DNA of 64,000 bases from an uncultured Chitinophaga sp. (GTDB taxonomy: Bacteria > Bacteroidota > Bacteroidia > UKL13-3): assembly GCA_964545895.1 (NCBI GenBank), contig CAZJHS010000003.1:4421-68420 (forward strand). Reading direction: 5' to 3'. Below are positions 7,367-29,943 of the stretch, one piece after another. Each line of letters starts with the position of its first letter. Positions within the stretch are counted from its first letter, which is position 1. Under the pieces are notes generated by a model. It did no database searches. It saw nothing but the letters and a program-made list of their open reading frames with translations, and was not told the origin of the DNA. The position numbers and the translations under genes are program-made.

Positions 7367-7387
7367 ACATCAACGAATAAGTGATTA

Positions 7388-10494: not shown

Positions 10495-10498
10495 TTTT
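10432..10498. repeat. Direct repeat DR1a (67 bp; 3' end of the membrane-protein gene)
   Basis: acccaccaacaaatatactggggtgcttttattgggtttatgatgatgtggttggtgatgtgatttt matches 13181-13247 at 66 of 67 positions. Confidence 0.95.
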
Positions 10499-10841: not shown

Positions 10842-10875
10842 GGAGTATAATAGGTTAAACAAGTTTAATAAAAAT

Positions 10876-10890
10876 GTGCATCACATGCAC
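10876..10890. promoter_or_regulatory. Perfect 6-3-6 palindrome (candidate XRE operator) in the divergent promoter region
   Basis: gtgcat-cac-atgcac lies immediately upstream of the XRE gene. A palindromic gtgcac follows at 10905-10910. Confidence 0.35.
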
Positions 10891-11040
10891 CATATGTTCA
10901 TATTGTGCACGCGATTTTACTTCAAGTAATGCCAAACCAATAATAGTTTTGAGTTGAGTTTACAAAGTGTTACTGCAGAGCATTATTGAAACTTACGGAT
11001 AGCCGAAAACGGATTAGAGTAGGCAATAAATAAATTTAAT

Positions 11041-11448
11041 ATGAAAAAAGTAATTTCATTGTTATTAACAATCATGTCAGGAGTAATGTATGGTTATGGA
11101 CAAACAACATATGTTGTTGAAAACGGAGTAACATACACAAGGATTTTCACAATTCAAGAGTACCAGTCATTAGGGTTAATGGTTGAAGGAGAAGAAGTGG
11201 CTGAAGCTGCAAGAAAGAAGAAATCAGGAACAATTTTGTGGTGTAAAAAAGGTTATGGGTGCTGTTTGTCATCAAGAATTGAAATAGATGGAAATGGTGG
11301 AATTACCGCTATGACTGTTGTTGCCCAAGTTGATGATGAAGGGAATGCGGTACAAGAAACAAGTGGAATCTTTGCTTATTATAATTCAGAATTAGATGAA
11401 GTTATTTATCGTGTTACATCAACACCACCAGCTGTAATCGCAAATTAG
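11041..11448 (+). CDS. Small secreted protein with a WCKKGYGCC cysteine motif
   Basis: 135 aa with a signal-like N-terminus (MKKVISLLLTIMSGVMYGYGQ). An acidic EGEEVAEAA stretch is followed by RKKKSGTILWCKKGYGCC. I recognise no family. Confidence 0.6.
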   Translation: MKKVISLLLTIMSGVMYGYGQTTYVVENGVTYTRIFTIQEYQSLGLMVEGEEVAEAARKKKSGTILWCKKGYGCCLSSRIEIDGNGGITAMTVVAQVDDEGNAVQETSGIFAYYNSELDEVIYRVTSTPPAVIAN

Positions 11449-11458
11449 TATTTAAATA

Positions 11459-11489
11459 ATGCCAACAATTAAATTGTTGGCATTTTATT
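11459..11489 (+). terminator. Hairpin terminator/attenuator between the small gene and the 557-aa gene
   Basis: Stem gccaacaat / attgttggc followed by attttatt, 11 nt after the stop at 11448. Confidence 0.55.
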
Positions 11490-11502
11490 CTTATTTTTAT
11501 TT

Positions 11503-13176
11503 ATGAAACGACTATTATTTTTATTGATTTGCTTTAATCAGTTTAATGTAAACGCTCAGTTTACTGAAAAATTTTATCATTTGGATACTTATGCTGCTGA
11601 AGCAAGTTTTGATTCATTGATACGAAATGAAATTCAAACTCATGATAGCTTGTCAGAGAGCTACTATCTCATAACCTATCCCATATTGGCTGGTGCTACT
11701 AGTTGGGTTCCTCAATTTATCAGGATATTTAATAAAATAAAAAACACAAATAATGATATTGTTATACTCTACTATCTAAATGGGGGATTACGAGAGAAAG
11801 ATATTCCTTTATTTATGAAGGAAAAATTGAAAATGACAGATGCAGACATGAAAAAAGTGAAAACTATTTTTAATGATGAACTTTATACAACCATAAGTAA
11901 TGGGAGAAACTTGGTTAGGCTGCAATATTATTTTAGAAGAAAATTATACTATGATGAGGCGGGAAAATGGCATGATGTTGCAGCAACAAATTTGCCAGAA
12001 GAGAAAATAACTATTAAACAAATAAATAAAATTCAATTAAAAGAAATTGACTCATTGCTCCTATTTGAAAGAGACCAAATTTTTCCTTTTAAAGAAGATA
12101 AATTACTTATTTTAAGTGATGCAAAAAATGAAATCCTAGAACTTGATGTTAATTCAGGAGAAGTAAAACCATTTATCTCAATAAATAAGGTATTTAACGC
12201 TACTGATATATATTGTAAGTATTTTGCGAATGGAGACACCTTAGCTTGTAACTATGCAAAAAAATTGGAACACAAAGTTACTTCAATTGGTAGGCAAACA
12301 TTAAAAATTGATGGAGTTAAAAAAGTGGATGATTTTCTATATCTGTCAGGGGGAATTGAAGCATTTGTTCAAGACAAAAAAGATTATACATTTAAAAATG
12401 AAGAGGGAGAAAAAGTTACTATTGAAGCGAGTGAACCTTCTACATCCTATTTTGGCTTAATATTTAAATACAACTTAATTACTAAGCAATGTGAAATATT
12501 TAGGTTAGAGGAGTTGCCCGAAACTCGGAAAGATTTTCCATTCATTTATCCAGATTGTGGACTTTTTATGAAACAAGATACCATTGTTGCTGGCGTGAAT
12601 ACATGGCATAAAAAAGGTTTAAACACATTTAATTTAATTAATCTAATACCCAAAGATGGCAGCTATAAACCAGCTAATAAATTGGCACCATTAGAGATAA
12701 AATCACCACTATTGGCAGATAATTACAACAAAAGTTTTTTTTATACATTTAATGAACAGCAATACTTTTCCATCAACTTTAGTAAACACATTTACTTAGT
12801 TGGCAGAGAAAAACCACAATCTAGTTTATATGGTAATGGCAGCTCCCCATACAGTATCGAAAAAGTTCCTGACTTTGTGGAGGACACTTCTTCATCACTA
12901 TTGGTAAACTTTTCTATACACGACATGAAGCCAATTTTTAATAACAGGTACTTACTAACTTATTGTGATTTTAAAGGGCAACCTATTTTCGAATTAAAAA
13001 ATCGGATGTTAAAAACCGTTGACATAATAGATGCAAAAAGTATTAAAGGGCTTGAGCGCTATTATTCAAACAACTATAGAATTGATTTACTAATTGATAA
13101 CGATAAGATATATTATAAGAGTATTGATAATGGTGAAATGTTTCTAAATGTATTTTCTATCCTACCAGTCAACTGA
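11503..13176 (+). CDS. Secreted hypothetical protein (N-terminal thioredoxin-like segment without CxxC, then a beta-rich region)
   Basis: 557 aa with a signal peptide (NQFNVNAQ). The segment YYLITYPILAGATSWVPQFIRIFNKIKNTNNDIVILYY resembles the CxxC segment of the 5723-7366 product. It looks AT-rich. Confidence 0.7.
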   Translation: MKRLLFLLICFNQFNVNAQFTEKFYHLDTYAAEASFDSLIRNEIQTHDSLSESYYLITYPILAGATSWVPQFIRIFNKIKNTNNDIVILYYLNGGLREKDIPLFMKEKLKMTDADMKKVKTIFNDELYTTISNGRNLVRLQYYFRRKLYYDEAGKWHDVAATNLPEEKITIKQINKIQLKEIDSLLLFERDQIFPFKEDKLLILSDAKNEILELDVNSGEVKPFISINKVFNATDIYCKYFANGDTLACNYAKKLEHKVTSIGRQTLKIDGVKKVDDFLYLSGGIEAFVQDKKDYTFKNEEGEKVTIEASEPSTSYFGLIFKYNLITKQCEIFRLEELPETRKDFPFIYPDCGLFMKQDTIVAGVNTWHKKGLNTFNLINLIPKDGSYKPANKLAPLEIKSPLLADNYNKSFFYTFNEQQYFSINFSKHIYLVGREKPQSSLYGNGSSPYSIEKVPDFVEDTSSSLLVNFSIHDMKPIFNNRYLLTYCDFKGQPIFELKNRMLKTVDIIDAKSIKGLERYYSNNYRIDLLIDNDKIYYKSIDNGEMFLNVFSILPVN

Positions 13177-13180
13177 TATT

Positions 13181-13247
13181 ACCCACCAACAAATATACTG
13201 GGGTACTTTTATTGGGTTTATGATGATGTGGTTGGTGATGTGATTTT
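13181..13247. repeat. Direct repeat DR1b (67 bp)
   Basis: Second copy of the 3' end of the membrane-protein gene. The single mismatch (10456 g vs 13205 a) would change Ala to Thr. Confidence 0.95.
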
Positions 13248-13377
13248 GTTTATTGGTTAAGCCATACTAATGACTTAAAAAAATCATAATTTACATTGTG
13301 CACATCCATGCGTAATTAAGATTAAAAAACAATAATTAAATTTGAGTTAAGCCATTGGCCAAGCTAAAATTTATACT

Positions 13378-16300
13378 ATGAACCTAAGAGCCCTAATTAC
13401 TTTACTTCTATTACTACCATTAGGTGTTTGTGCGCAGCAATTTACTGATGCAACAGTTATTGGGGGATTAGGTGGCCAAGGCGTAAACAATATTTATCAT
13501 GATAATATTGGAAACAAATATGTGTTGCTTTTCTCAGACAAGCCAATTACAATTGATAGCTCGGGAACCCCGATTACTATAACTAGTAATTCAAGAGAGT
13601 ATGCGCTCATAAAGTATTCTAATAAAAATAAGTATTTACACCACATAAGTATTAAACGAGTTTGGCCAAATAGTAGTTTTGTTGTTTCATTTACCTCCCA
13701 AAACGACCTTCTGCTTTCTTGCTCTTTTAATCATCGTGATACCATAGAACTTTATCATTCCAACAGATTATTATATAAACAGTTAATTATCAGAAATGGA
13801 ACTCCACCTTTAGCTCGTAACATTGCAGTTTTCATTACTAAAATTAGCTCAAGTGGGCAGTTCTTATGGACCTCGTTCATCAATAAATTAAACGCCAATT
13901 ACACTCAACAAGGTGCAATTGAAGTTGGCGTTTATTGCCACTCCGATACTGCTATTTATGTTAGTTTTAGTAGTGACCAATTAACAAATAGCATTGATAC
14001 TATTTTAGTAACTAATAACACAAATCAATCCGATACTATTTTTTCCAATAAGGTATCAATCATTGTTAAACTTAATCAACAAGGCAAGTTACTTACCTAT
14101 ATCGAACCGCTTAAATCTTTAAAACATTTTCAACAAGATTCAGCACTTATAAGAACATTTAAAATAGCTAAAATTAATAACAATATTTACTTCGTATTAA
14201 ATGCAACAATTACAACTCCAGATAGTATTGTTGGATTAAGTCAAACCACACCAATTGATACCGGCACTGTTTATTTACTTTTTAAAATGAACCTTACAGA
14301 TAGCATAGTTTGGGCAAAAGAAATAGTAGTAAATCATACCGGACCACAAGTACAATATCCAATTATTGACTTGAGTTCTGATACGGTGAATAATCATTTA
14401 CTTTTAGCTATTGATTTTGACCCGTATCGCAACGAAATGAAATTGTTTAGTTCCAACGCAAGCTTCGGAACTTATTTGAGCAAAATTGATGAACAAGGGA
14501 ATCCGGTTTGGAGCGAATTTCTGAACAACATTAGATACCCTACCTACAAAAAAAACTATACTAATAAACAATCCGTTCTAATTGGAGAAACGGTCTATCC
14601 AAATGGATATTTTCAGCATTATTTACCATACAACCAACTTGGCATTCGAACAACTTTTATTGCTTTTCAAGATAGCATGAACAGGTTTTTTAATGCACAA
14701 AGCATTCACGCTAATCAAGTAACCTTCAGCAGCACCTTATCAATATCAGGCATATCTATTAGTCCAAATGGTAAAGTAGCAGTTGGTGGTTCATTTTTGG
14801 ACAGCATCTCATTACCCTGTAGAACTATCCAAGCCACACTTGATTACAGCGACTACGGACAAAAACTATCTGATGGCTTTTTATTAGAATACAGCCCAAT
14901 ATTGGCAATTGATACTGCTGTTTGTAAAAGAATGATATCGCCTAGCGGTAAATACACTTGGGATAGTACTGCCTATTATTTTGATACCATACCTAATAAA
15001 TTGGGCTGCGATAGTACCCTATTGTTTTATGTGAAGGTAATGCAAGATAAAGTTTCAATTGACACTACTGTTAAAGTAAGCATGCAATCGCCAAGTGGTA
15101 AATATATTTGGGATAGCACCGCAACCTATACCGATACCCTGACTAATACTTTTGGATGTGATAGTATACTTACTTTTAATGTAAAGGTGTTACAAAACAG
15201 CACTTTTATTGACACTTCGGTTTGTTTGTTTTTTAAACTTAGCACAAGTTTAAAAGCATTTTACCAAACAGGTAATTTTATTGATACCCTAACCAACCGC
15301 TTGGGGGGCGATAGTATTGTTTACATTAAACTTACCATACTTAAAAGTACTGCAATTATTGATACCTCGTTTTGCAATAAAATACTAAGCCCTAGTGGTA
15401 AGTTTTGGTTAAACAATACAGGCGCGTATACCGATACATTAATGAACAAGCATAATTGTGATAGTATAATCGCCATTAGGTTTACACGCTTACCCATGAT
15501 GGATACAATTCGGCTATCTGCATGTAAACCATTAGGCAGCCCTAGTGGTAAGTTTGTTATGAATGAAACCCGTTGGTATACCGATACATTAGTGAGTAGT
15601 AAAGGTTGCGACAGCATACTACAAATTGACTATACGCAAATACGTATTACCGATACCATTGTTTTAGCCAATTGTAATGCGGCTTTAAGTCCAAGCAATA
15701 AATTTGTAATGCAACAAAGCGGCTGGTATACCGATACCCTTATAACCACCAATGGTTGCGATAGTATAATACGTATAAATTTTACGCTTTTAAAATCAGC
15801 TAGTAGTATTGTGCTGGTTGCTTGCGATAGCCTTATATCGCCTAGTGGTAAATTAGTTTTTAATGCACCTGGAGTTTATACCGATACAATAACAAATGCT
15901 GCAGGTTGTGATAGTATTATTACCATTAATTTAACTTTTTCTAATTCGCAAATAAGCGTTTCAAAATCAAATGATATTAGTTGCGAAAACCAAAGCGCTG
16001 TATTAACCGCATCGGGTGGTAGTGTTTATGTTTGGCAACCATCAACAGGGTTATCAAACACGCAAATTAGCAATCCCATTGCTAACCCCCACCAAACTAC
16101 TCAATACACAGTAATTGCTACTGATGCCTACGGTTGTAAACTTTCAGATACGATATCGGTTTATGTAAATATATTAGATAGTGTTAACAATATACCAAAT
16201 GTAATTACACCAAATAATGACGGATTAAACGACTGCATTTCGGCAGAAAATATCGCTCAATTTAACACTTGCTCATTTGTTATTTTATCGCGCTGGGGTA

Positions 16301-16458
16301 ATGTTGTTTGGCAAACCAACAATCCTAAAAATAATTGGTGCGGCACTACCGAAAACGGACAAGAAACAGCCGAAGGAACATACTATTATATACTTAAAGG
16401 CACAACGCTTTGTAATCAAAAAATTAATAGTACGGGTACAATTACAGTTATTAGGTAG
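13378..16458 (+). CDS. Large secreted protein with a T9SS type B (gliding-motility CHU_C) C-terminal sorting domain
   Basis: 1026 aa with a signal peptide. It contains seven 50-aa Cys-containing repeats. The C-terminus is IPNVITPNNDGLNDC...GTYYYILKG...TGTITVIR. Confidence 0.85.
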   Translation: MNLRALITLLLLLPLGVCAQQFTDATVIGGLGGQGVNNIYHDNIGNKYVLLFSDKPITIDSSGTPITITSNSREYALIKYSNKNKYLHHISIKRVWPNSSFVVSFTSQNDLLLSCSFNHRDTIELYHSNRLLYKQLIIRNGTPPLARNIAVFITKISSSGQFLWTSFINKLNANYTQQGAIEVGVYCHSDTAIYVSFSSDQLTNSIDTILVTNNTNQSDTIFSNKVSIIVKLNQQGKLLTYIEPLKSLKHFQQDSALIRTFKIAKINNNIYFVLNATITTPDSIVGLSQTTPIDTGTVYLLFKMNLTDSIVWAKEIVVNHTGPQVQYPIIDLSSDTVNNHLLLAIDFDPYRNEMKLFSSNASFGTYLSKIDEQGNPVWSEFLNNIRYPTYKKNYTNKQSVLIGETVYPNGYFQHYLPYNQLGIRTTFIAFQDSMNRFFNAQSIHANQVTFSSTLSISGISISPNGKVAVGGSFLDSISLPCRTIQATLDYSDYGQKLSDGFLLEYSPILAIDTAVCKRMISPSGKYTWDSTAYYFDTIPNKLGCDSTLLFYVKVMQDKVSIDTTVKVSMQSPSGKYIWDSTATYTDTLTNTFGCDSILTFNVKVLQNSTFIDTSVCLFFKLSTSLKAFYQTGNFIDTLTNRLGGDSIVYIKLTILKSTAIIDTSFCNKILSPSGKFWLNNTGAYTDTLMNKHNCDSIIAIRFTRLPMMDTIRLSACKPLGSPSGKFVMNETRWYTDTLVSSKGCDSILQIDYTQIRITDTIVLANCNAALSPSNKFVMQQSGWYTDTLITTNGCDSIIRINFTLLKSASSIVLVACDSLISPSGKLVFNAPGVYTDTITNAAGCDSIITINLTFSNSQISVSKSNDISCENQSAVLTASGGSVYVWQPSTGLSNTQISNPIANPHQTTQYTVIATDAYGCKLSDTISVYVNILDSVNNIPNVITPNNDGLNDCISAENIAQFNTCSFVILSRWGNVVWQTNNPKNNWCGTTENGQETAEGTYYYILKGTTLCNQKINSTGTITVIR
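14923..15972 (+). repeat. 7 x 150-bp in-frame tandem repeat (C..SPSGK[YF]..W....YTDT..N..GCDSI)
   Basis: Units start at Cys codons from 14923 to 15823, with an average period of exactly 150 bp. The third unit (CLFFKLSTSLKAF...GGDSI) is degenerate. Confidence 0.85.
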
Positions 16459-16518
16459 CTAGTTTAATTTTGCCTATCATTATTTAATATTATAAACCCA
16501 AACTCATAACACCTTTTA

Positions 16519-16624
16519 CATCCATGCCTTTATCTAAAACCATTATTACTTTTATATTTAGCATTTGCAGCTTCTTGTTTCTTTCGTGCGGAAAATTGTA
16601 CCTAAAAGCTACTGGTGTAAAACC
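16519..16624. repeat. Direct repeat DR2a (106 bp; copy of the 5' end of the lipoprotein gene at 18343)
   Basis: Matches 18338-18443 at 105 of 106 positions, with a constant offset of 1819 bp. Confidence 0.95.
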
Positions 16625-16628
16625 ATAA
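16524..16628 (+). pseudogene. Truncated duplicate of the lipoprotein gene 5' end (signal peptide/lipobox only)
   Basis: MPLSKTIITFIFSICSFLFLSCGKLYLKATGVKP followed by a stop. Homology to the 18343 gene ends abruptly at 16624. Confidence 0.7.
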
Positions 16629-16720
16629 ACGTTACTGATTTTGACATGGGCTTATACATTGTACGTTTAGTGATAGACGACCAAACCGTTGCTAATACAA
16701 TACTCAATTATTCAAATTAA
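16628..16720 (+). pseudogene. 3' remnant of a T9SS C-terminal sorting domain gene
   Basis: Translates as NVTDFDMGLYIVRLVIDDQTVANTILNYSN plus stop. It resembles the last strands of the CTDs elsewhere in this window (GLYYLKINTPKGVIVKKIVKD, GIYFVKFTL...). It has no upstream body and keeps its own terminator. Confidence 0.55.
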
Positions 16721-16733
16721 TTTTATAATTTCG

Positions 16734-16767
16734 AAACACCGCGTATTATAAAATACGCGGTGTTTTT
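16734..16767 (+). terminator. Rho-independent terminator of the remnant gene
   Basis: Stem aacaccgcgtat / atacgcggtgtt followed by ttttt. Confidence 0.7.
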
Positions 16768-16778
16768 ATTTAACTCCC

Positions 16779-18296
16779 ATGAAAAAAAATTGGCTATTAC
16801 TAGTAATTATATTCTTTACCCAATTGTTAAAGGCGCAAAATACACAGTTGTTTCACAATAGGGATAGTACTAGCAGCAGAGTTATACTTTTATCTACTGG
16901 CTCTGATAATAGTTCACTATATAGTTTAAGTTGGCACTTACCAATTGATTCGATTCAGGATAATAATCGATTTTATTATAAGATAAAAAAAATTGACACA
17001 TCGGGAAATTTATTAGCGGCAAACGAAATTTATAAGAATGGAAAATTAAACGCCAGTTATCAACCAAGTACACCAAATCAAACTGACTTTGTTATTGTTG
17101 AAAACAGTGACACCTCAGAAAACTCTGTATACTACATAAACTATATTAAAAGTAATTTAAAAGTTGATAGTTTTATTTTACCGTTAATTGGTAAAACCCC
17201 ATATCTGTTTACCTATTGCAAACACAATGATAAGCTAATCATCATTTCATCAGACAGTAGAACTCTTGGAAACAAGGCATACGTAACCATTGCAGATACA
17301 CTTGGTAATGAAATTAAAACACAAAGATTCCTTTACGAATACTTTTATAATCAAACCAACCAAATAAGCATTACTCCGCTATGCTTGATTAGCGATGGAA
17401 ATGGAGGATTTATATCTGGTGGATGGTATGATACAGCTTCACAAGAAACCAAAATAAACTTGTTTAGAATTGATAGTTTGGGAAATAAAACTTGGGAGTA
17501 TAAAGAAACACGGATTGGAGGTTCTTTTATAAAAGGCATGCAGCTATTGCCTGATAAAACCATTTTAGCTTATGGAGCTTATGGAGATTTAATGTACTTG
17601 GCCAAGTTTAGTCAACAAGGTCAATTACTTAACGAAAATTTTTATTATCCAGGTGGTTTTATCGATCGTACAAGTGGCCGTTGCAATATTATTAATGTTA
17701 AAATAATTGATGGATATATATATGCCGTTGGTGGATCGCACAATATGTTTAAAGCACTTAATACATACACCGATTTGGGTACGCTTTTAAAAACAGACTT
17801 AGATGGTAAACCCATTTGGGCCAAGCAATTTGGCAATTATTATGGTTACAATATTCTAGATCAAATTTACCAAACATCAAATAGCCGATTGTTGTTGGCA
17901 GGGCTTGGTGTTGACAGCACACAAATGCCTTTACATGGAGTAAGCTGGTATGTAAGTACTGATACTGCTGCTAACGAAAACCTGCCTTGGTGCCAATTAG
18001 TAAATGTTGAGCGGTATTATCCATTTACGGGTATTAACGAGGTAAGTAGTTTGGGTTCAATGATACAAGTATATCCAAACCCAACAAATGGTGAGTTAAC
18101 CATTAAAAATCCCTTACAACTAGCTATTAACCAAATTCAATTTTATGACGGAAATGGTACACTTTGCCACACCCAATTATTTGATGAGCCAAACGCCCAG
18201 TTTAATATTGATGTTACTTATTTAAAACAAGGATTGTATTACTTAAAAATAAACACACCTAAGGGTGTTATAGTAAAAAAAATTGTAAAAGATTAA
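16779..18296 (+). CDS. T9SS type A sorting domain-containing secreted protein
   Basis: 505 aa with a signal peptide. The CTD is IQVYPNPTNGELTIKN...GLYYLKINTPKGVIVKKIVKD. Confidence 0.85.
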   Translation: MKKNWLLLVIIFFTQLLKAQNTQLFHNRDSTSSRVILLSTGSDNSSLYSLSWHLPIDSIQDNNRFYYKIKKIDTSGNLLAANEIYKNGKLNASYQPSTPNQTDFVIVENSDTSENSVYYINYIKSNLKVDSFILPLIGKTPYLFTYCKHNDKLIIISSDSRTLGNKAYVTIADTLGNEIKTQRFLYEYFYNQTNQISITPLCLISDGNGGFISGGWYDTASQETKINLFRIDSLGNKTWEYKETRIGGSFIKGMQLLPDKTILAYGAYGDLMYLAKFSQQGQLLNENFYYPGGFIDRTSGRCNIINVKIIDGYIYAVGGSHNMFKALNTYTDLGTLLKTDLDGKPIWAKQFGNYYGYNILDQIYQTSNSRLLLAGLGVDSTQMPLHGVSWYVSTDTAANENLPWCQLVNVERYYPFTGINEVSSLGSMIQVYPNPTNGELTIKNPLQLAINQIQFYDGNGTLCHTQLFDEPNAQFNIDVTYLKQGLYYLKINTPKGVIVKKIVKD

Positions 18297-18298
18297 CG

Positions 18299-18325
18299 GC
18301 TACTCACACACAAAATAAAAGTCTC
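18299..18325. repeat. Direct repeat DR3a (27 bp; copy of the 3' end of the FkbM methyltransferase gene)
   Basis: gctactcacacacaaaataaaagtctc matches 19020-19046 at 26 of 27 positions. On the minus strand it still encodes DFYFVCE-stop, and the mismatch is synonymous (GAC vs GAT). Confidence 0.85.
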
Positions 18326-18337
18326 TTCATAAAACTT

Positions 18338-18443
18338 CATCCATGCCTGTATCTAAAACCATTATTACTTTTATATTTAGCATTTGCAGCTTCTTGTTTC
18401 TTTCGTGCGGAAAATTGTACCTAAAAGCTACTGGTGTAAAACC
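18338..18443. repeat. Direct repeat DR2b (106 bp)
   Basis: Copy that forms the 5' end of the lipoprotein gene. See DR2a. Confidence 0.95.
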
Positions 18444-19006
18444 TTTTAAGCCAGTAATAGAACAGCAATTAATTAGTTACTTAAGCAAACAAGGTGTTAA
18501 ACAAGAGCGTATTTATGAAGTAGATTCTGTTCGTTTTAACGAGTTGCTTACATGATACATTAGTTTACACTAAGCCCAACTGGTGGATTCAAAATCATAT
18601 TCAACCTATACAAACCGTATGTTTTGATAATGCTACTAAAAAGCCACTGTATGCGTATTTTAATTGTATTGCAGAAAGTAAAGGGTTAACTCAATTTACT
18701 TGGAATAAATTTCAGGAGCTAGAATCGTTTCCGCCCAAAGAATATACCTCATACCGTTGGATAGACACCTTATTTACATTAAATGAATTAACCAATACAT
18801 TTGTTGATTTTAAAGGAAATTCAATTGTGTTGAACAATAACGAGAAAAAGTATACTGTATTTATTTACTACTCATTATTTGTAGAGAAGCAAGCCAACAA
18901 TTTGATAAGAGAAACGCTTACTCACCTCAACACTTTTATACCAAACGACTATAATGTGTACTTTATCAATTTTGATAATGCACTGTATCAGCTAAGTACT
19001 AATTAG
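18343..19006 (+). pseudogene. Lipoprotein gene interrupted by a frameshift
   Basis: Frame 0 runs from 18343 to the stop at 18553-18555 and includes the lipobox FLSCG. A second frame, offset +1, is open from 18524 to the stop at 19004-19006, adding about 150 aa (LHDTLVYTKPNWWIQNH...NALYQLSTN) with no start codon of its own. Confidence 0.6.
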
Positions 19007-19019
19007 GTTATACCCAACA

Positions 19020-19046
19020 GCTACTCACACACAAAATAAAAATCTC
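19020..19046. repeat. Direct repeat DR3b (27 bp; authentic 3' end of the methyltransferase gene)
   Basis: See DR3a. Confidence 0.85.
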
Positions 19047-19767
19047 CTTGTTCGTAGTTTAAGGCATTGGCACGTGTAAGTTCGCTTAGCTTACCTTGTT
19101 GCAGTTGCATAATTTTGTAGCCCAAAGGCAAAAACAAATCAAAAATAGTTGCTCTATTTTCGGGGCTGCTAATTTCCATTTGTATGGTAGGTTTAAACTT
19201 AGCAATTGTTTTTATAAAATGAGGCATCAAAAAAACTTCATAGCCTTCTACATCGCACTTTAAAAAATCAAACCTGGTTAAATGGGCAAATAATTCGTCA
19301 GGAATTTGCATGGCAACTTGGTAAGTATGCATGTTAGCCTCCTGCGCGTGGCTATCAATAACCTTTGTTAAACCGTGTCTAAAAACCCCATCAACCATGG
19401 GTGTGCCCATTTGTATGGTTTTATGCTCGCCACCTAATGCAGTTTGGTGCAGGGTAATATTACCTAAACCAAATTGAGTTACATTTTTTCTGAAAATGCT
19501 GGCAAATAAATCAACTGGTTCAACCGCATGTACATGTCCATTTGCACCTGCATATTGCGATAAAAACACCGAGTAGTAACCTACATTAGCACCAATATCA
19601 ACACAAACAAAACCTGGCTTTACTAATTGTTGTAAAAAGAATAATTCGGGATATTTTTTCTTTAAAAATCCCGAGCGTATTAAACGAATATAAACCTCGC
19701 TAACCAAGGCCAAGTATTTCTGATGTCCTAATACATCAAGCAGTAATGCGCGTAATTGTTTTTCCAT
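19021..19767 (-). CDS. FkbM-family methyltransferase
   Basis: 248 aa with the SAM-binding motif VCVDIGANVGYYS and FLKCDVEGYE. Confidence 0.8.
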   Translation of the reverse strand: MEKQLRALLLDVLGHQKYLALVSEVYIRLIRSGFLKKKYPELFFLQQLVKPGFVCVDIGANVGYYSVFLSQYAGANGHVHAVEPVDLFASIFRKNVTQFGLGNITLHQTALGGEHKTIQMGTPMVDGVFRHGLTKVIDSHAQEANMHTYQVAMQIPDELFAHLTRFDFLKCDVEGYEVFLMPHFIKTIAKFKPTIQMEISSPENRATIFDLFLPLGYKIMQLQQGKLSELTRANALNYEQGDFYFVCE

Positions 19768-20927: not shown

Positions 20928-21215
20928 ACCGCAACTTATACCAATTGTAATTATTTTCAAGTGCAAACTAGAAAATAATTTTACAATGGTAATGCCGATG
21001 CTATACCGATGAGAAATAAGTAATGGTTCAATTTCGTTTCACATCATTGTACCAAACTTCTTTCCTATCGGCATATACCACTGTAGGATTTATATCATTT
21101 AAATAATTTATAAATCACATTGGTATTACATGAAAATAGTTCAATAAGGCCATAGCAGAGATTGGACTATATTGAATGTGCCTTCGGTATTAAGGCAAAG
21201 TTGGGTTGATAGCAA

Positions 21216-21276: not shown

Positions 21277-23793
21277 TTATTCTATAATCACACGCTTGGT
21301 AGCCACGCCACCATTGGTAATTACTTTAACAATGTACATGCCTTTTTGCGTTAGGTTTAATTGGGTTGATGTGGTTTGCTCCACCAATTTACCAGTAATA
21401 TCATATACATCAACACCCAATACTTTAAGTGCAGCAGGTAAAGCAATATTTACCACACCTGTACTTGGCACCGGATACATATTTACCAAATGATTAATAG
21501 TACTGTTTTCGGTTAAACCAACATACTGTTTAAAGTTAACCATTACACTGTCGTAAGCACGCATTTGAGGAGCTTTAGCAGCGTTAAACTCGCGTACATA
21601 AATTACCACATTGTTTTTGCTCATGTTAGGTACTTTAAATGAGTAGATGTTATTATTTTTAATAGCACCAACAATTGGAGTTACTATTATTGCAGAAGAG
21701 CTACTATCAAAATACACATATTGTAAAACTACAGAATCAACCATATTGCTATTCCAAACAATGCTGTAAGTTGAATCTGCATTTAACATAGCATTAGGTG
21801 CAGGTGCAGTAATATTTATATCAACTACCGTATCAACAGCAATGTAAGTCATCGTGCTAAAATCAATTTTTCTTGTCCACTCTGGGTGGTCAATAAATGG
21901 ATTACGATTTTTTTGTACAGTATAAATGTACTCGTTGCGCGCAATCTCTAATGCACTTGGAGGATCTTGTTGGTGCCATTGTAATAACACATTTAAATCT
22001 TGACTTGATGGCAATCTCCATGCGTTACCATTTGCACCATCATAACAAGTTAACATGTAAAGTAAAGCACGTGCGGCATCTCCTTTTTGTTCGTTGCGTG
22101 GTTCGTAAACTGTATTTCCTTTGCTATCAGTTCCTAATTTTCCTTCACCAGTAGGTGAGGTATATGTAGCATTAACTACAACAGCTAAAGGATAATTGCT
22201 ACGCTTGCCATTGCCTACAAGTTGGTCGGCAGGGAACAAGTGGTGTAAATCGTTATACTCTGGCAATTCCTTACCATTAGCGCCATTTGGCCAAGTAGAA
22301 ATACTACGTGTTGGCATCCAGCTTTGGCAAAAAGTATGCTCGCGTGTTTGTGTGCCAGGATTACCTGATTGTCCAGTCCACCATGTAAATGGCTCGTTGT
22401 ATACATAAGGAGCACCAGTATACACACAAGTAACGGCTTTTTTTCCGCCTGTTGTATCGCGCGATAAGTAGTTATTTACAATAACAGACAAATAACTACT
22501 GTAAAAAATAGTATCGTGCGAGTTAATCTTATTATGCAACGCAGTAAGGAAGTTATTAGCTTGCGGATCGATACCGTTGTAGTAATTTCCTGGCTCGCCA
22601 TTTAAAGTGGTTACACTTGAAGTTGGAACATTGCTGGTGTTGTAATTCTCAAATCCAGCAGGGCCATTAACCGAGTATGCAGCAAAGCTGTAATTGGTAT
22701 TTGCTAAAATGTAATTAGGTTTAATTGCGGTAGTATCTGCACCAATATACATTACTTGCGCACCACCAATATAATCTCCTCTTTGGTAAGTTACACCATC
22801 AACTGGTGCTTCGGTAAGTGCACCTCCCACTTTTCTCAATATCAAATATTTTTCGGTTTGGGTTGATGGATAGCTAACCGTTAATGTTTGTGTGCGCACA
22901 TTGCTCACATTAATAGAAGGAACAGCTGCAGGCTCGGTTGCATATTGGCCTCCAATAGCATAAAGATTAATTAAAAACGGGCTACGCTCTGTATCCGAAG
23001 TATATAACTTAACAGTGGCATAACGAGAACCATTTGCACTAGGTGTAAAGTAAACCGAGAAAGTATCGGTTCCATTATTAAATGGTGTAATACTATCAAA
23101 AGTGCCTACTGCAAAATCAGCAGCATGTGTGCCACTTAATACAATACTATCTATTTTTAAATTAGCCCCTGTACCTACATTTTGTATGGTAAAATTTTTA
23201 CTTGCGCTATTACCAAAAGTGTAAGTAATACCGTTTGATAAAGTGGTGGTATTTTGTTTAACCAACAAACCAACAGCAGCAGCAGGTGCCGCGTTAACCG
23301 TAATCAAATCAACGGCCATATTACCTCCACCTCCAGAACCACCCGGAAGCTTTATTGTGTAATAAAACCTTACCCAACGTGTGGTCGATTTTAATGAATC
23401 GGTATACATTGGGTCGTTAAAGTTGGTTGCAGTTGTTGCTTTTGATGTGAAGCTACGCATTGTTGTCCAAGTGGTACCATTATCACTCTCTTGAATATCA
23501 AACTGACCTGCCCAAGCATTACCTGCATTTTGTGGACTTAAATAATAAGTTAACGTACCCGGTTTATCAGCAAAGTTGATGGTTATATTTTCACCTGTCG
23601 CATCTAATCTGCCCGAAAGTGCATCGTTTTTACCAAATGCATAGGTTAAGTTTCCGTTAGTACCTACATTGTAACCCCAACCAGTTGGTGGAGCTGAAAC
23701 ACTTGGAGTTGTGAAGCCCCAGCTTGTAGGCAACACTGCCTGTGCAAATGCCAACATGGGCATCATGCATAATGAAAGTATTAGTTTTCTCAT
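21277..23793 (-). CDS. Secreted endonuclease I family nuclease with a T9SS C-terminal sorting domain
   Basis: Endonuclease I motifs are present (REHTFCQSW, DLHHLFPAD...GKRSNYP, YEPRNEQKGDAARALLYM, RNPFIDHPEW). The CTD is MYPVPSTGVVNI...GMYIVKVITNGGVATKRVIIE. The signal peptide starts at the ATG at 23793. Confidence 0.85.
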   Translation of the reverse strand: MRKLILSLCMMPMLAFAQAVLPTSWGFTTPSVSAPPTGWGYNVGTNGNLTYAFGKNDALSGRLDATGENITINFADKPGTLTYYLSPQNAGNAWAGQFDIQESDNGTTWTTMRSFTSKATTATNFNDPMYTDSLKSTTRWVRFYYTIKLPGGSGGGGNMAVDLITVNAAPAAAVGLLVKQNTTTLSNGITYTFGNSASKNFTIQNVGTGANLKIDSIVLSGTHAADFAVGTFDSITPFNNGTDTFSVYFTPSANGSRYATVKLYTSDTERSPFLINLYAIGGQYATEPAAVPSINVSNVRTQTLTVSYPSTQTEKYLILRKVGGALTEAPVDGVTYQRGDYIGGAQVMYIGADTTAIKPNYILANTNYSFAAYSVNGPAGFENYNTSNVPTSSVTTLNGEPGNYYNGIDPQANNFLTALHNKINSHDTIFYSSYLSVIVNNYLSRDTTGGKKAVTCVYTGAPYVYNEPFTWWTGQSGNPGTQTREHTFCQSWMPTRSISTWPNGANGKELPEYNDLHHLFPADQLVGNGKRSNYPLAVVVNATYTSPTGEGKLGTDSKGNTVYEPRNEQKGDAARALLYMLTCYDGANGNAWRLPSSQDLNVLLQWHQQDPPSALEIARNEYIYTVQKNRNPFIDHPEWTRKIDFSTMTYIAVDTVVDINITAPAPNAMLNADSTYSIVWNSNMVDSVVLQYVYFDSSSSAIIVTPIVGAIKNNNIYSFKVPNMSKNNVVIYVREFNAAKAPQMRAYDSVMVNFKQYVGLTENSTINHLVNMYPVPSTGVVNIALPAALKVLGVDVYDITGKLVEQTTSTQLNLTQKGMYIVKVITNGGVATKRVIIE

Positions 23794-24044
23794 AAAATAT
23801 TTCTGTGCTAAAAAAGCTGTGCAAGATAAACCTTTAGCATGCACAATTCCTTGATAATTAAATCAAATTATCATTAAATTTATGCAAACGGAGTTTTAAT
23901 TACTGCCAATTTTAAATGCTTCAGCATGATGCTCTTTGCTCAAACTATTACATTTTTGGCTTTGATTTTCAGACGTTTATTAAATTTATTGGAAATAGGT
24001 GTAACTTTACCTACCTCATTTGCGTACTACCATCGCCCCCAATA

Positions 24045-24530
24045 ATGACAGTAGCGGAATACAATACATGTGTTGATTTATTTGCTGACGGCCTATATAG
24101 GTTTGTGGTGAAGAATTGCCGCAACCAAGATATGGCGCAAGACGTGGTTCAGGACACGTTTGAAAAGTTATGGGTAAAGATAAACCACGTAGAATATGCA
24201 ACTGCTAAATCGTATTTATTTACTGCTGCCTATCATACCATGATTGATGCTATTAGAAAAGATAAAAAACATGCTGATATAACCGAAGAAAACCATGAGC
24301 ATTACAATACCGCAAGCCAATACACTGATGTAAAAAAAGTACTTAACATGGCACTAGCTAAGTTGCCCGAAATACAACGTGTGGTAATTACACTTAGAGA
24401 TTATGAGGGATATAGTTATGAGGAAATTGGACAAATAACAACTTTAACCGAAAGCCAGGTAAAGGTATACATATACCGAGCCCGCGTATTTTTAAAAAAC
24501 TATTTGGTAAGTCTTGATAGCGTAATATGA
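24045..24530 (+). CDS. ECF-type RNA polymerase sigma-70 factor
   Basis: It has region 2 (DVVQDTFEKLW) and region 4 (VITLRDYEGYSYEEIGQITTLTESQVKVYIYRAR). I prefer the ATG at 24045. Confidence 0.85.
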   Translation: MTVAEYNTCVDLFADGLYRFVVKNCRNQDMAQDVVQDTFEKLWVKINHVEYATAKSYLFTAAYHTMIDAIRKDKKHADITEENHEHYNTASQYTDVKKVLNMALAKLPEIQRVVITLRDYEGYSYEEIGQITTLTESQVKVYIYRARVFLKNYLVSLDSVI

Positions 24531-25486
24531 ATTTAGACAGAACAACATACGAGCTTTTTATTATTGATTACTTGGAGGGCCAATTGGATGCTGTTCAGGT
24601 ATCGGAGCTATTGTTGTTTTTAGAGCAAAACCCTGATTTAAAAACCGAATTTGAAGGTATTGAACAGGTGTATTTACACAAAGAGGAAATACTAAGTATT
24701 GACAAAAAATCGCTTAAAAAGCCTGAGCAAATAAACATCACTCCTGCTATAGAAAACTTGATGGTGGCCGTACTCGAATCAGATGCCACACCTGCAGAGC
24801 AAGCGCATTTATCAAACTTAACAGCAACTTACCCAAACCTGCGTATCCAACAACATTGGCTTGCGCAAACCATAACCGAAGCCGATTTAGCTGTAGTTTA
24901 TCCACGCAAAAAATCGCTTAAAAAATACAGCATTGGCAAATGGTACAAAATATCGGCTGTTGCAGCAGCACTTATTGCCAGCCTTGTAATTGCAGTGTTT
25001 TACAATACACCAATTACGCCTAATCCAATTGCCCATGTAAAGCCAGTATCTAACCCAAAAAATGTTGCACAAAACAAAGCTGAAACCCTACCCGTTTTAG
25101 CATCATTAACTACACAAAAAGAGATTAAACATACCCGTAAATCAATTTATGCAAACAAGCTAACAGCACCTATAAAAACAGCACCTGCTAGCTGCACATT
25201 AATTGCTACAAGCAAAAAGCCAATGCTAACTGCTGCCAATAAGCTGGAGTTTAAGGTACAAAACACGCAAGTAATACTTTTAGCTGCGCATAAAAATACT
25301 GATGATGATTTTATAAACGCAAACGAATGGCTTAAAAACAAAGTGGCCGAAACAACCAGTCCAAACTCATTACTGGCCCGCTTTAACCAAATTACTGGAG
25401 CAGGAATAATTTTAGAAAAAGATTCTTTTAGCGGAAAGTTTAAACGATTTGAAATTACAAGTATAGGTTTAGCTTTAAATAAATAA
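24527..25486 (+). CDS. Putative anti-sigma factor / membrane protein
   Basis: Its start overlaps the sigma gene stop (ATGA). It has one TM helix (ISAVAAALIASLVIAVFY). The call rests on position. Confidence 0.55.
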   Translation: MNLDRTTYELFIIDYLEGQLDAVQVSELLLFLEQNPDLKTEFEGIEQVYLHKEEILSIDKKSLKKPEQINITPAIENLMVAVLESDATPAEQAHLSNLTATYPNLRIQQHWLAQTITEADLAVVYPRKKSLKKYSIGKWYKISAVAAALIASLVIAVFYNTPITPNPIAHVKPVSNPKNVAQNKAETLPVLASLTTQKEIKHTRKSIYANKLTAPIKTAPASCTLIATSKKPMLTAANKLEFKVQNTQVILLAAHKNTDDDFINANEWLKNKVAETTSPNSLLARFNQITGAGIILEKDSFSGKFKRFEITSIGLALNK

Positions 25487-25546
25487 TTTTCAACTCCGCT
25501 GTAACTTTTTACATCACCTAACCGTATTACAGTAAATATTAAAACC

Positions 25547-26980
25547 ATGAAAACTTATACTAAACTATTTTTACTGCTTATTGGAGCTCCAATTTTGTTT
25601 ATTAAACCAGCTAAAGCCCAAAGCAGCCAACCATTACCCGAGTTTGATAAAATTAAAGCAGATGGCTATGTTAACATTGAACTTGTAATTGCCGATAGAC
25701 ACTCAGCTTACTCGGGTGCCGAAACAACACTTAAATTAGAGGTTAGCAACGGAACTCTTATTATCGATAATCTGCCAAGTGGAGAAAACTCGTTAAAAAT
25801 TTACACGCCTAAAATTAATGCCATACAATTAGATGGTGCTGTACACTTAACCACCACCGACACTATCAGAAATACTAATTTTTCGGTATTACTTGATGGC
25901 GCAAGTACTGCAAACATTATTGTTATAACTGATAACTTAAAAGCAACCGCTGATGGTGCTGCTAACTTAACCCTTGCAGGCAAGGCACAAACTGCGGTTT
26001 TTAATGTAGATGGTGCTGCAAAAATTAATGCTTTACAACTTATTGCAGAGCAGGCCGATGTAAAAGCAGATGGAATTGCCGCTGCAAAAGTTAACGTAAC
26101 TAAAAACCTAATTGCCCGAGCCGATGGAACTGCCAACATTAGTTTTGCCGGAAACCCCACCAATAAAACACTTACTATGGATGGTGTATCGCACATAAAA
26201 AGTATTGATACTGGTGATGACTTTACTGATTTAACGGAAACCAACACCCCAAAAGACGATACCACCAAAGTAAATATTGGCAATAAAAAGGTGCTTATTT
26301 TTGGAAACGATAAACAAAAGAAACCTAAAGAAACCACAGAATCTAAACGCATGAAACGTGTATATAGTGGGTTAGAGTTTGGTTTAAATGCATTAGTTAC
26401 CCCCGATTTGAGTTTTAAATTTGATAACACTAACAAATTTTTAAACACCAAAATGGGACAATCGTGGTTTGTTGGTTTTAACATACTTGAACGTGATTTA
26501 CAAATTGTTAAAAACAAAGTTGCCCTTACTACTGGCCTAGGTTTTAATTGGAGCGGTTATCGTTTTGATGGTAGTAATTACCTAACTCCAAATATCGACT
26601 CGGTAAGTGCAACCACATCGGCAACTGCATTAAGCTTAAACCAACTAAATACATTTGATATAAATGCGCCCTTACTAATTAAATATGCTCCTGGCCGAAA
26701 CAACAAAAAAAATAAAGGTTTCCATATTGCTGCAGGTGCAATTTTTAGATACATAGCCGCTGTAAATGTAAAAACCGAAACCACAGCAAATGGCTACAGG
26801 CAAATGGTATATCTGTACGATGATTTTAACATTAACCCGTTAAAAGTTGATGCAACAGTTAGAGTTGGATATAATAAATTACGCCTTTTTGCCAACTACT
26901 CGCTTACACCCTATTTCAATGCCAACAACGCACCCGATGTGCGCACATTTGCAGTAGGAATTACGCTTTTATCACACTAA
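25547..26980 (+). CDS. Head GIN (DUF2807)-like domain fused to an outer-membrane beta-barrel-like C-terminus
   Basis: 477 aa with a signal peptide. Repeated DGA(A/S)xxN strands resemble DUF2807. The C-terminal half is rich in alternating aromatic and Gly residues and ends FAVGITLLSH. Confidence 0.55.
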   Translation: MKTYTKLFLLLIGAPILFIKPAKAQSSQPLPEFDKIKADGYVNIELVIADRHSAYSGAETTLKLEVSNGTLIIDNLPSGENSLKIYTPKINAIQLDGAVHLTTTDTIRNTNFSVLLDGASTANIIVITDNLKATADGAANLTLAGKAQTAVFNVDGAAKINALQLIAEQADVKADGIAAAKVNVTKNLIARADGTANISFAGNPTNKTLTMDGVSHIKSIDTGDDFTDLTETNTPKDDTTKVNIGNKKVLIFGNDKQKKPKETTESKRMKRVYSGLEFGLNALVTPDLSFKFDNTNKFLNTKMGQSWFVGFNILERDLQIVKNKVALTTGLGFNWSGYRFDGSNYLTPNIDSVSATTSATALSLNQLNTFDINAPLLIKYAPGRNNKKNKGFHIAAGAIFRYIAAVNVKTETTANGYRQMVYLYDDFNINPLKVDATVRVGYNKLRLFANYSLTPYFNANNAPDVRTFAVGITLLSH

Positions 26981-27004
26981 TTCAATCAATAAACCTTATA
27001 GGCA

Positions 27005-27045
27005 AACGCCTATTGCTCTTTAAGTGGAGCAATAGGCGTTTTTTG
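27005..27045 (+). terminator. Rho-independent terminator
   Basis: 14-bp stem aacgcctattgctc / gagcaataggcgtt followed by ttttt. Confidence 0.75.
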
Positions 27046-27088
27046 TAATAAATTATCTGTTTGTAAATGCTTACTTTCGCATCAAATT

Positions 27089-29911: not shown

Positions 29912-29943
29912 ATTTGTATATTGCATTACCTTTTAATTGATGT

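Follow-up and report, generated by a model that had tools for sequence, protein, structure and literature searches.

The short repeat found at the 3' end of the FkbM-family methyltransferase (MT) gene probably marks a recombination scar: its left-hand copy, DR2a, is a non-functional relic of the MT gene end at the seam between two accessory cassettes, S and L. The interval in which it lies, between a 200-aa membrane-protein gene and the convergent MT gene, both core genes, is a strain-variable hot spot. It seems probable to us that the seams of this interval are scars left when alternative alleles were stacked end to end by illegitimate joining, with later reshuffling by homologous recombination and gene conversion at the repeats. 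The locus offers a natural example of the gain, stacking, swapping and loss of accessory genes without mobile-element machinery, at one fixed position bounded by two core genes, in an uncultured Bacteroidota lineage of wastewater and freshwater.

Repeats and features of the variable interval

Cassette S consists of a T9SS tail remnant with a 505-aa cargo gene, and cassette L of a 224-aa lipoprotein gene. The features are listed below with positions in the window, by which we mean the whole 64-kb stretch of DNA that was analysed.

9892–10494, plus strand: 200-aa membrane-protein gene, the conserved left core flank (faint PAP2 hit in a homolog)
10432–10498, plus strand: DR1a, true 3' end of the 200-aa gene (last ~63 nt and stop)
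10497–13176, no single strand: cassette block of an XRE/HTH regulator (10497–10862, minus strand), a 135-aa secreted protein (11041–11448) and a 557-aa protein (11503–13176)
13181–13250, plus strand: DR1b, 67–70-nt relic of the 200-aa gene 3' end
13378–16458, plus strand: 1026-aa T9SS type-B (CHU_C) cargo gene cassette
16485–16518, plus strand: native upstream of the lipoprotein gene, L048 type (aligned with the L-only alleles L048 and L057)
16519–16624, plus strand: DR3a, orphan 5' end of the lipoprotein gene, ATG at 16525
16625–16720, plus strand: T9SS type-A tail remnant, last 31 codons of a lost cargo gene (INVTDFDMGLYIVRLVIDDQTVANTILNYSN-stop)
16733–16766, plus strand: intrinsic terminator hairpin of the lost gene (15-bp stem and U-tract)
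16779–18296, plus strand: 505-aa T9SS type-A cargo gene of cassette S (Por_Secre_tail and TIGR04183 hits)
18295–18325, core 18299–18325, minus strand: DR2a, relic of the last 7 MT codons, stop and up to 5 nt beyond
18326–18337, plus strand: seam J2 and 11–12 nt of lipoprotein-gene upstream (TTCATAAAACTT, L055-like type, from alignments)
18338–18443, plus strand: DR3b, 5' end of the full-length lipoprotein gene copy
18343–19006, plus strand: lipoprotein gene (cassette L), a pseudogene here
19016–19046, minus strand: DR2b, the real MT 3' end
19021–19767, minus strand: FkbM-family methyltransferase gene, the right core flank (Methyltransf_21 and TIGR01444 hits)

The 27-bp repeat described in the first-pass annotation is present, with DR2a at 18299–18325 (GCTACTCACACACAAAATAAAAGTCTC) and DR2b at 19020–19046 (GCTACTCACACACAAAATAAAAATCTC) identical at 26 of 27 positions, and it extends a further 4 nt leftward (18295–18325 vs. 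19016–19046, 29/31). Both copies encode DFYFVCE and a stop on the minus strand, the sole mismatch in the 27 nt being a synonymous GAC/GAT change, exactly as that annotation had read them. The core of DR2a, which had been placed 3 nt after the stop of the 505-aa gene, begins 2 nt past its TAA, a stop with which the longer 31-nt form of the repeat overlaps. In antisense orientation, DR2a is a truncated MT 3' end lying 12 nt ahead of the start region of L. The 27-mer has only these two matches in the 64-kb window at up to 3 mismatches, which speaks against the common intergenic motif that had been raised as an objection, and the early judgment that chance is a very unlikely origin agrees with 0 of 100 dinucleotide shuffles containing a match (the chance expectation is none).

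The proposal that DR2a was imported from a diverged homolog fares less well, as a single transition is insufficient for it and the relic bears the CTACTCACACAC end that is specific to the MT gene of the same species. Two changes are present in the corresponding relic of L054, as expected from drift in a dead relic. The window relic matches its own MT end at 26/27 positions whereas that of the sister lineage L065 is only ~74% identical to its own, so that either homogenisation has affected the window relic or J2 is of more recent origin than assumed. DR2 has no hairpin and gave no signal in simple regulatory scans, for which reason a terminator or regulatory role was rejected. DR2a is functionless in itself; jointly with DR3 it supplies short portable homology through which cassettes can be gained or lost.

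Self-comparison of the window (at least 22 nt, at least 88% identity) yields three direct repeats only, DR1 (10432–10498 vs. 13181–13247, 98.5% identical), DR2 and DR3 (16519–16624 vs. 18338–18443, 105/106), all of which fall within 10.4–19.0 kb and none of which is inverted. DR2 and the 106-nt DR3 are indeed interleaved, as first noted, while the order then given (DR2a, DR3a, DR2b, DR3b) has to be amended, since DR3a comes first and the plus-strand order is DR3a, DR2a, DR3b, DR2b. The DR2 copies are one L unit (721 nt) apart and the DR3 copies one S unit (1,819 nt) apart, and the two units hold unrelated genes. DR1b starts 5 nt past the 557-aa stop, where the 557 block meets the 1026 cassette, and DR3a retains 34 codons (signal peptide and lipobox) followed by a stop created at seam J1 (16624/16625). 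The DR3 copies differ at 5–6 sites in X13, X14, X16, X17 and L054, and match fully or almost fully in the window and X15, which carry different alleles; this pattern points to recurrent gene conversion.

In the corresponding position, L030 and L031 have a longer remnant, with which the tail remnant beyond J1 shares 74% amino acid identity; we also considered the window remnant as the end of a tandem 505 paralog and rejected this for its weak similarity to the 505 tail domains. The terminator hairpin that follows has a folding energy of −21.6 kcal/mol (z = −6.85). The lipoprotein gene, intact at 224 aa in other strains, is frameshifted in the window by an 11-nt deletion (AAAAAAGAAAG missing after 18551), while the MT gene adjoins DUF4834 and a racemase gene in all relatives. 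There is no integrase, transposase or relaxase among the called genes (Pfam lists, ~10 kb on each side), and Pfam and NCBIfam scans of the cassette proteins returned no mobility gene.

Alleles and seams among strains

The interval contains forward-oriented accessory genes, mostly for T9SS cargo or lipoprotein, and the identical 200-aa protein occurs on 19 contigs with differing downstream content. Taking an identical 200-aa flank protein and about 98% DNA identity to denote the same species, that species has an empty allele (L033, L060), an L-only allele (L048, L049, L055 and L057, with L behind the 1026 gene in L055) and an S+L allele (window, L054, L066, L067). S+L also occurs free of the 557 and 1026 genes in X13, X15 and X17, and S-only is found in the sister lineage L065 and the more distant relatives L010 and L015. 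The view that the locus merges alternative alleles is supported by this comparison of relatives, in which the empty, L-only, S-only and S+L states all exist.

Further contents are HTH-178-L in L050, HTH-135-557-1026-L in L055, the same series plus S in the window and L054, and HTH-399-1032-S-L in L067. The HTH-135-557 block is missing in L048, L057 and L060, and the 1026 cassette in L048, L057 and L065, with a 1032-aa gene (74–76% identical) in its stead in L067. Presence and absence of S can be compared in otherwise matching backgrounds (L048/L057 vs. X13/X15/X17; L055 vs. the window and X5). The 505 gene itself is a mosaic, the window and L054 agreeing at 77% over the first 520 nt and at 99% over the rest. 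A JGI metagenome scan with the MT protein returned only one near-identical short contig, the empty allele L033.

Relics of the core genes vary in length from seam to seam, those of the MT 3' end being 27–31 nt in the window, 72 nt in L066 and 213 nt in L030 and L031, and those of the 200-aa gene 3' end 67–70 nt in the window, 118 nt in L054 and 211 nt in L066. The 72-nt MT relic of L066 directly abuts its 211-nt 200-aa relic, which is just what the end-to-end join of two complete alleles predicts. An 805-nt contig of X14, taken at one point as a 1026-like gene beside MT, is such an L066-type seam of a 72-nt MT relic and a 200-aa relic, and the former reading was rejected. Where both parents are known, the seams lie at microhomology, of 8 nt in L054 (TTAATTTT) and of 4 nt in L066 (GCAC). 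For J2, a tentative 11-nt candidate, ATAAAAATCTC, taken from L054, is weakened by the DR2-like relic left of DR3 in L065, and the L054 sequence upstream of DR3a may be a truncated relic and not the natural L upstream.

Every S-bearing strain has J1 and J2 in identical form, over a local divergence of about 1–23%, which implies that each arose once and then spread. The S unit is found behind three different L-upstream types, and L065 holds the other circular permutation, DR2-J2-DR3-J1-S-MT, so that recombination has taken place within DR2 and/or DR3. The seams occur at unrelated sequences with no constant core at the boundaries, and no tyrosine or serine recombinase is present in any allele compared.

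At least 10 public runs, drawn from several studies, have the seam 505-DR2a-12 nt-DR3b on a single k=31 contig, and it is also present in the independent megahit/SPAdes contigs L054, L066 and L067. In X1, X13, X15 and X17 the depth of DR3 is double that of the flanks, and in X15, apparently a single-organism run, the depth is 19.9 for S, 21.5 for L and 21.8 for the flanks. Repeats of 27–106 nt break short-read assemblies at this locus, where stacked alleles could be mistaken for chimeric assemblies. The core-gene relics, for their part, record which alleles were joined and at which positions, and could help in reconstructing strain histories in metagenomes.

The first-pass annotation had proposed that recombination at DR2 would leave the lipoprotein gene and recombination at DR3 the 505-aa gene, and that the locus could resolve either way. 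These outcomes are swapped: a DR3a × DR3b exchange is predicted to lose the 505-aa cassette and keep the lipoprotein gene, and a DR2a × DR2b exchange to lose the lipoprotein gene and keep the 505-aa gene. No contig shows a present-day resolution, and since the window copy of L is frameshifted, the gene retained on resolution to L would be a broken one. The screen for the predicted DR2 deletion junction gave no skip-721 (DR2 × DR2) joint in the k=31 contigs of 12 runs. All 24 runs found consist of k=31 contigs, which DR3 (106 nt, longer than k) always breaks, hiding S-minus molecules. About half the flank depth for S in X5, X6 and X10 might have indicated a mixture of S-plus and S-minus, a reading on which we do not rely given that the DR3 depth does not add up and that some runs hold a second 5' half of the 505 gene (77% identical). 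L055 was likewise considered and rejected as a DR3a × DR3b deletion product of the window, its L upstream being of a third type; as their L upstream type differs, none of the L-only alleles found is a clean product of DR3 deletion from the window arrangement.

Proposed history and competing explanations

A new allele would arise through an illegitimate joint at short microhomology on one end and homologous exchange in the conserved flank on the other, so that the incoming allele does not replace the resident one but is stacked next to it. Any seam would then retain the piece of core gene that lies between the true cassette end and the breakpoint. The process would amount to homology-facilitated illegitimate recombination (HFIR) or, equivalently, to unequal crossover between misaligned alleles, and the joining route may have been transformation, conjugation, unequal sister exchange or replication template switching.

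The order of events, which we infer by parsimony only, would have been as follows. An L allele would first have been joined 27–31 nt inside the MT 3' end, giving J2 and the relic. The tail of the lost T9SS gene, its terminator and the 505 gene would then have replaced L from nt 107 on, producing J1 and an S-only allele like that of L065. L would have been regained to the right of S, either by exchange through DR2 homology or by entry of the 1.8-kb S unit into L through DR3, and the product would be the interleaved DR3a-S-DR2a-DR3b-L-DR2b. It counts against this step that an exchange within DR2 would have had only 27–31 nt of homology to use, which is near the lower limit for RecA-type recombination. 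Flanks would finally have been swapped by homologous recombination and DR3a homogenised to DR3b by gene conversion, after which, in this clone, L would have decayed by its 11-nt deletion.

The strongest competitor is compatible with this account of how the seams arose and differs on how the S unit spread. It holds S to be a recombinase-free mobile cassette whose relic ends act as portable homology arms: the 1,819-nt unit DR3-J1-tail remnant-505-DR2a-J2 would excise as a circle (DR3 × DR3) or be taken up as DNA, and would re-insert through host recombination by a single Campbell-type crossover, which could use either the 106-nt DR3, placing the unit in the L gene, or the 27–31-nt DR2, placing it in the MT 3' end. 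We regard this as unlikely. The two circular permutations fit it, with S lying between DR3 copies in the window, L054, L066 and X13–X17, and in L065 between the MT end and a DR2-like relic, but these may equally be obtained by unequal linear exchange. One run yields a closed k=31 unitig of 1,849 nt (1,819 + 30) with identical 30-nt ends, yet a pruned de Bruijn graph of a chromosomal repeat gives the same closed unitig. The presence or absence of S in matching backgrounds and the gene conversion at DR3, through which its two copies interact, are also in its favor; against it, S is not in excess in X15 (19.9 vs. 21.5 and 21.8), and we know of no route by which a non-replicating 1.8-kb circle passes between cells. 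If the S unit were mobile in this way, relics of illegitimate joins would have become the 'att sites' of a self-propagating exchange of T9SS cargo cassettes.

The 721-nt spacing of the DR2 copies, exactly one L unit, could also be explained if tandem duplication came first, the MT 3' end having crossed over unequally with the L upstream and so duplicated the L unit (yielding DR2a and J2), and most of the first L copy having later been replaced by the tail remnant and 505-aa gene. It is somewhat in keeping with this that the sequence upstream of DR3a in L054 shares the 11-nt match mentioned above with the MT end. We nevertheless find it improbable, as it requires three (near-)non-homologous joints (J2, J1 and a right joint within 27–31 nt) instead of two and leaves unexplained L065, where DR2-J2-DR3 stands left of S and directly after the 557-aa gene. 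None of the alleles compared has two complete L copies, and a simple tandem duplication would not have 1,819-nt S and 721-nt L units with unrelated genes.

Site-specific integration, in which the repeats are att sites of an element that targets a gene 3' end and restores it, is very improbable: DR1 around the HTH-135-557 block and DR2 around L superficially resemble attL/attR, but no integrase or recombinase gene occurs in or near any allele, relic lengths vary per seam (27, 72 and 213 nt for MT; 67, 118 and 211 nt for the 200-aa gene), and the seams fall at unrelated sequences. A two-strain chimeric assembly, a chance or low-complexity match or a common intergenic motif might be suspected in an A-rich region from a probably metagenome-derived source, but such explanations are effectively refuted by the 0/100 shuffles, the two copies and three long direct repeats only in the window, the occurrence of the unique J2 sequence in three other assemblies and on contigs from at least 10 runs, and the doubled DR3 depth in X1, X13, X15 and X17.

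Comparison with known systems

The illegitimate stacking that we favor closely resembles HFIR, which is reportedly established in transformable bacteria. It has been shown experimentally in Acinetobacter, Streptococcus pneumoniae and Pseudomonas stutzeri. As in HFIR, one end would have a homology anchor in a conserved gene and the other a joint at a few bases of microhomology, as observed in L054 and L066; foreign genes are added beside the anchor, and neither recombinase nor att site is involved. A relic of the adjacent anchor gene is contiguous with acquired DNA at DR2a, at DR1b and in L066, and the breakpoints differ in position and length. The process is deduced here from natural population variation in uncultured Bacteroidota and not from experiment, and the outcome differs in that as many as five cassettes have come to be stacked, their seams marked by core-gene relics. 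HFIR is discussed in PMC6382021.

The Campbell-type alternative shares with classical integration an insert bounded by direct repeats of the shared homology, and two permutations of the S unit are expected from integration through either homology patch; here, in contrast, no circular form was observed and one patch is only 27–31 nt. Site-specific integrative elements have a linked recombinase and a constant att core, neither of which is found at this locus. Tandem accretion of genomic islands at tRNA or gene 3' ends similarly produces a row of inserts with direct repeats of a partial flank-gene 3' end, but with an integrase and a constant att core, whereas here there is no integrase, the relics range over 27–213 nt, and relics of both flanks occur. 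An integron cassette array does not fit, given the lack of an integrase and the unrelated boundaries DR1, DR2 and DR3, and the only strong hairpin of the locus is an ordinary terminator, not an attC site. Invertible or shufflon systems do not fit either, as the repeats are all direct and there is no invertase.

Minimal mobile elements, which are said to occur in Neisseria, are closely similar in having a fixed site between two conserved genes that holds different whole-gene cassettes or none, with no mobility genes and with exchange by homologous recombination in the flanks. Their alleles normally replace one another, while here they are also concatenated with relics between them, and these relics then serve as internal homology. 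Core-gene-flanked integration hot spots that lack mobility genes have reportedly been recognised as well, and the present interval has both the variable content, including an empty site, and the lack of mobility genes. The locus is a clear but fairly ordinary case of accessory-gene swapping and stacking in bacteria, and no new kind of system.

Gene order and repeats

The cassette proteins of the locus were annotated by Pfam and NCBIfam, and the repeats were located by comparing the window with itself.

Features of the locus, in window coordinates (a and b mark left and right repeat copies)
9892-10494: conserved 200-aa membrane-protein gene, left border of the variable interval
10432-10498 and 13181-13247 (right copy to 13250): DR1, 67-70 nt, 98.5% identity
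13378-16458: 1026-aa T9SS type-B cargo gene
16485-16518: native upstream region of the lipoprotein gene
16519-16624: DR3a, first 106 nt of the lipoprotein gene (signal peptide and lipobox, 34 codons)
16624/16625: seam J1
16625-16720: final 31 codons of a lost T9SS type-A cargo gene
16733-16766: terminator hairpin of the lost gene
16779-18296: 505-aa T9SS type-A cargo gene, with DR2a next on its right
18299-18325: DR2a, 27 nt
Between DR2a and DR3b: seam J2, with 12 nt of lipoprotein upstream sequence
18338-18443: DR3b, 105/106 identity with DR3a
18343-19006: lipoprotein gene, beginning within DR3b
19020-19046: DR2b, one mismatch to DR2a
19021-19767, minus strand: convergent FkbM methyltransferase gene, its 3' end being DR2b

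As the first-pass annotation had described, both DR2 copies read DFYFVCE-stop on the minus strand, with the mismatch being a GAC/GAT change. Extended four bases leftward, DR2 becomes a 31-nt repeat with 29/31 identity. No third copy of the 27-mer with ≤3 mismatches is present in the window, and no match occurred in 100 shuffles. Since DR1, DR2 and DR3 are the only direct repeats 22 nt or longer in the 64 kb (whole-window self-comparison) and all lie at this locus, DR2 is not a genome-wide motif. DR2 and DR3 are interleaved as had been claimed, with the order being DR3a, DR2a, DR3b, DR2b rather than one starting at DR2a. The deletion outcomes assigned to them must be exchanged: recombination between the DR3 copies removes the 505-aa cassette, and that between the DR2 copies removes the lipoprotein gene.

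The arrangement itself is genuine. The seam running from the 505-aa gene through DR2a and J2 to DR3b is found on single k=31 contigs in public runs of several independent studies (bioreactors, sludge, wastewater and freshwater), DR3 depth is twice the flank depth in runs X1, X13, X15 and X17, and independent assemblies with larger k (L054, L066, L067) span the whole structure. The window's lipoprotein gene is itself a pseudogene, frameshifted by an 11-nt deletion (AAAAAAGAAAG) after 18551, a state common to the window and X1. Most other strains keep these bases, and the gene is intact (224 aa, P0001) in X5, X6, X8, X10, X13, X15, X16, X17, L048, L054 and L055. The 1026-aa gene contains at least six tandem-like 150-nt (50-aa) repeats at 14919-15934 (motif SPSGK..W...G.YTDT..N..GCDSI).

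Alternative alleles of the interval

Allele contigs were found by using the flanking proteins as handles and were then aligned to the window; strains with an identical 200-aa protein and ~98% identical DNA were taken as the same species. Between the 200-aa gene and the methyltransferase gene, the alignments reveal a hot spot whose content varies from strain to strain.

Alleles of the interval (contigs of relatives or runs)
Same species: empty, stop codons 1 nt apart (L033, L060)
Same species: lipoprotein only (L048, L049, L057)
Same species: HTH-135-557-1026-lipoprotein, without the 505-aa cassette (L055)
Same species: full stack as in the window (L054)
Same species: HTH-399-1032-505-lipoprotein (L066, L067)
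Same species: 505 and lipoprotein, without the 557-aa and 1026-aa genes (contig graphs of X13, X15, X17)
Sister lineage, 75-88% identity: HTH-135-557, then a 505-like gene directly at the methyltransferase gene, without the lipoprotein gene (L065)
More distant MAGs (methyltransferase 78-82% identical): lipoprotein only (L009, L012, L029)
More distant MAGs: 505-like only (L010, L015)
More distant MAGs, L030 1-1120 (JAGPCI01) and L031 690-3270 (JAUCCO01): reverse-order composite of lipoprotein, 213-nt methyltransferase 3' fragment, longer remnant of the window's lost T9SS tail, and 505-like gene(s)

The proposal that the locus merges two alternative alleles is thus borne out, with single and combined states both found among strains. 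The 505-aa cassette is present or absent both with and without the 557-aa and 1026-aa genes, so recombination must have shuffled the parts. It is mainly T9SS cargo genes that the hot spot collects; in L066/L067 (700-5050) a 399-aa T9SS gene stands in place of the 135-aa and 557-aa genes, and a 1032-aa CHU_C gene (74-76% identical) in place of the 1026-aa gene. The 505-aa gene is a mosaic between the window and L054, with its first ~520 nt (16779-17300) 77% and its remainder (17301-18296) ~99% identical, and contigs of X5, X6, X9 and X12 branch near 16916-16990 and 17505, which means that a second 5' allele circulates. In both composites the complete methyltransferase gene lies on a separate contig; over the ~40 nt compared, the fragment is identical to the full gene's 3' end in JAUCCO01 and different in JAGPCI01.

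Resolution of the merged form at present, which had also been suggested, finds no clear backing: no DR2 joints occur in 12 runs, the lipoprotein-only alleles found do not match a clean DR3 product of the window form, and in a single-organism run the 505-aa cassette, the lipoprotein cassette and the flanks have equal depth. The 505-aa cassette stands at roughly half depth in X5, X6 and X10, an ambiguous hint of genomes lacking it in the same background.

Conspecific or sister contigs (L050, L048) lack four window segments or have other sequence in their place, which makes these further strain-variable spots: 5571-7383, with a near-perfect 34-nt palindrome (94%) at its edge (5585-5618), 20939-21189, 23882-27053 and 29902-34146. 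The endonuclease I/T9SS gene at 21277-23844 shows 79-94% identity between strains, with flanks 97-100% identical.

Relics and the history of the seams

Core-gene relics at seams are the rule at this locus. The 200-aa gene has left 3'-end relics of 67-70 nt in the window (DR1b, 5 nt past the stop of the 557-aa gene and a seam relic of the DR2a kind), 118 nt after the 1026-aa gene in L054, and 211 nt in L066 and L067; besides DR2a, those of the methyltransferase 3' end measure 72 nt in L066 and L067 and 213 nt in L030 and L031. In L066 the 72-nt and 211-nt relics abut, exactly as two complete alleles joined end to end would show. DR2a had been ascribed to a diverged homolog, for which a single G/A difference is insufficient; DR2a carries the species-specific CTACTCACACAC end, and the methyltransferase relic in L054 has two changes.

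Seams with both parents known sit in microhomology (TTAATTTT in L054, GCAC in L066), and no integrase or transposase was called within ~10 kb in any allele. Together with the variable relic length, this argues for illegitimate joining that went together with homologous exchange within the conserved flank. The seams probably formed by homology-facilitated illegitimate recombination (a term discussed in PMC6382021) or by unequal crossover between misaligned alleles, and not by a site-specific system.

The history of the window's seam is one that we infer. Every 505-bearing strain has J1 and J2 at matching positions, even where divergence of the surrounding DNA reaches 15-23% (in L054 the cassette's left half, and all of L065, the latter with an additional 13-nt loss at J1), so each seam probably arose once. 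In L065 the 557-aa gene is followed directly by the methyltransferase-end relic, J2 and a lipoprotein 5' remnant, all left of the 505 cassette, and the true methyltransferase end stands to the right of the cassette. The 1.8-kb unit is therefore present in two circular permutations, DR2-bounded in L065 and DR3-bounded in the window. If J1 and J2 each originated once, this requires one or more exchanges inside the 27-31-nt homology of DR2. The alternative is that a circularised 1.8-kb unit was inserted through DR2 or DR3. In X14, the equivalent of window 16519-18367 (Logan contig L068) is a 1,849-nt unitig that begins and ends with the same 30 nt and closes into a cycle of 1,819 nt in the k=31 graph, with the entry branch visible and the exit to the lipoprotein gene not; it could represent circular or tandem units, or mere graph pruning in a mixed sample. 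That the unit is a recombinase-free mobile cassette seems improbable to us.

The unit also lies behind three lipoprotein-upstream types, L048-type (window, X13-X17), L055-type (X5) and J2-type (L054), which implies further crossovers inside DR3a. Recent duplication is rejected as the source of the 105/106 DR3 identity, since the copies have 5-6 differences in X13, X14, X16, X17 and L054, where DR3a also has 5- and 13-nt deletions. The window and X15, which carry different alleles here, each have identical or nearly identical copies, and the window's identity is therefore ascribed to recent gene conversion.

Relation to known systems

DR2a is a real and readily explained feature, a scar left in a hot spot where cassettes become stacked. 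Tested for membership among integrase-based elements, integrons, simple tandem duplications and shufflons, the locus belongs to none of the four, and its likeness to the tandem accretion of islands at gene 3' ends is superficial only. In mechanism it resembles homology-facilitated illegitimate recombination, reportedly known from Acinetobacter and pneumococcus experiments. Less ordinary, it appears, is the reuse of relics as homology, which yields one cassette in two permutations. In population behaviour the locus is like the minimal mobile elements of Neisseria and core-gene-flanked hot spots without mobility genes, and it adds a further example of a process already known.
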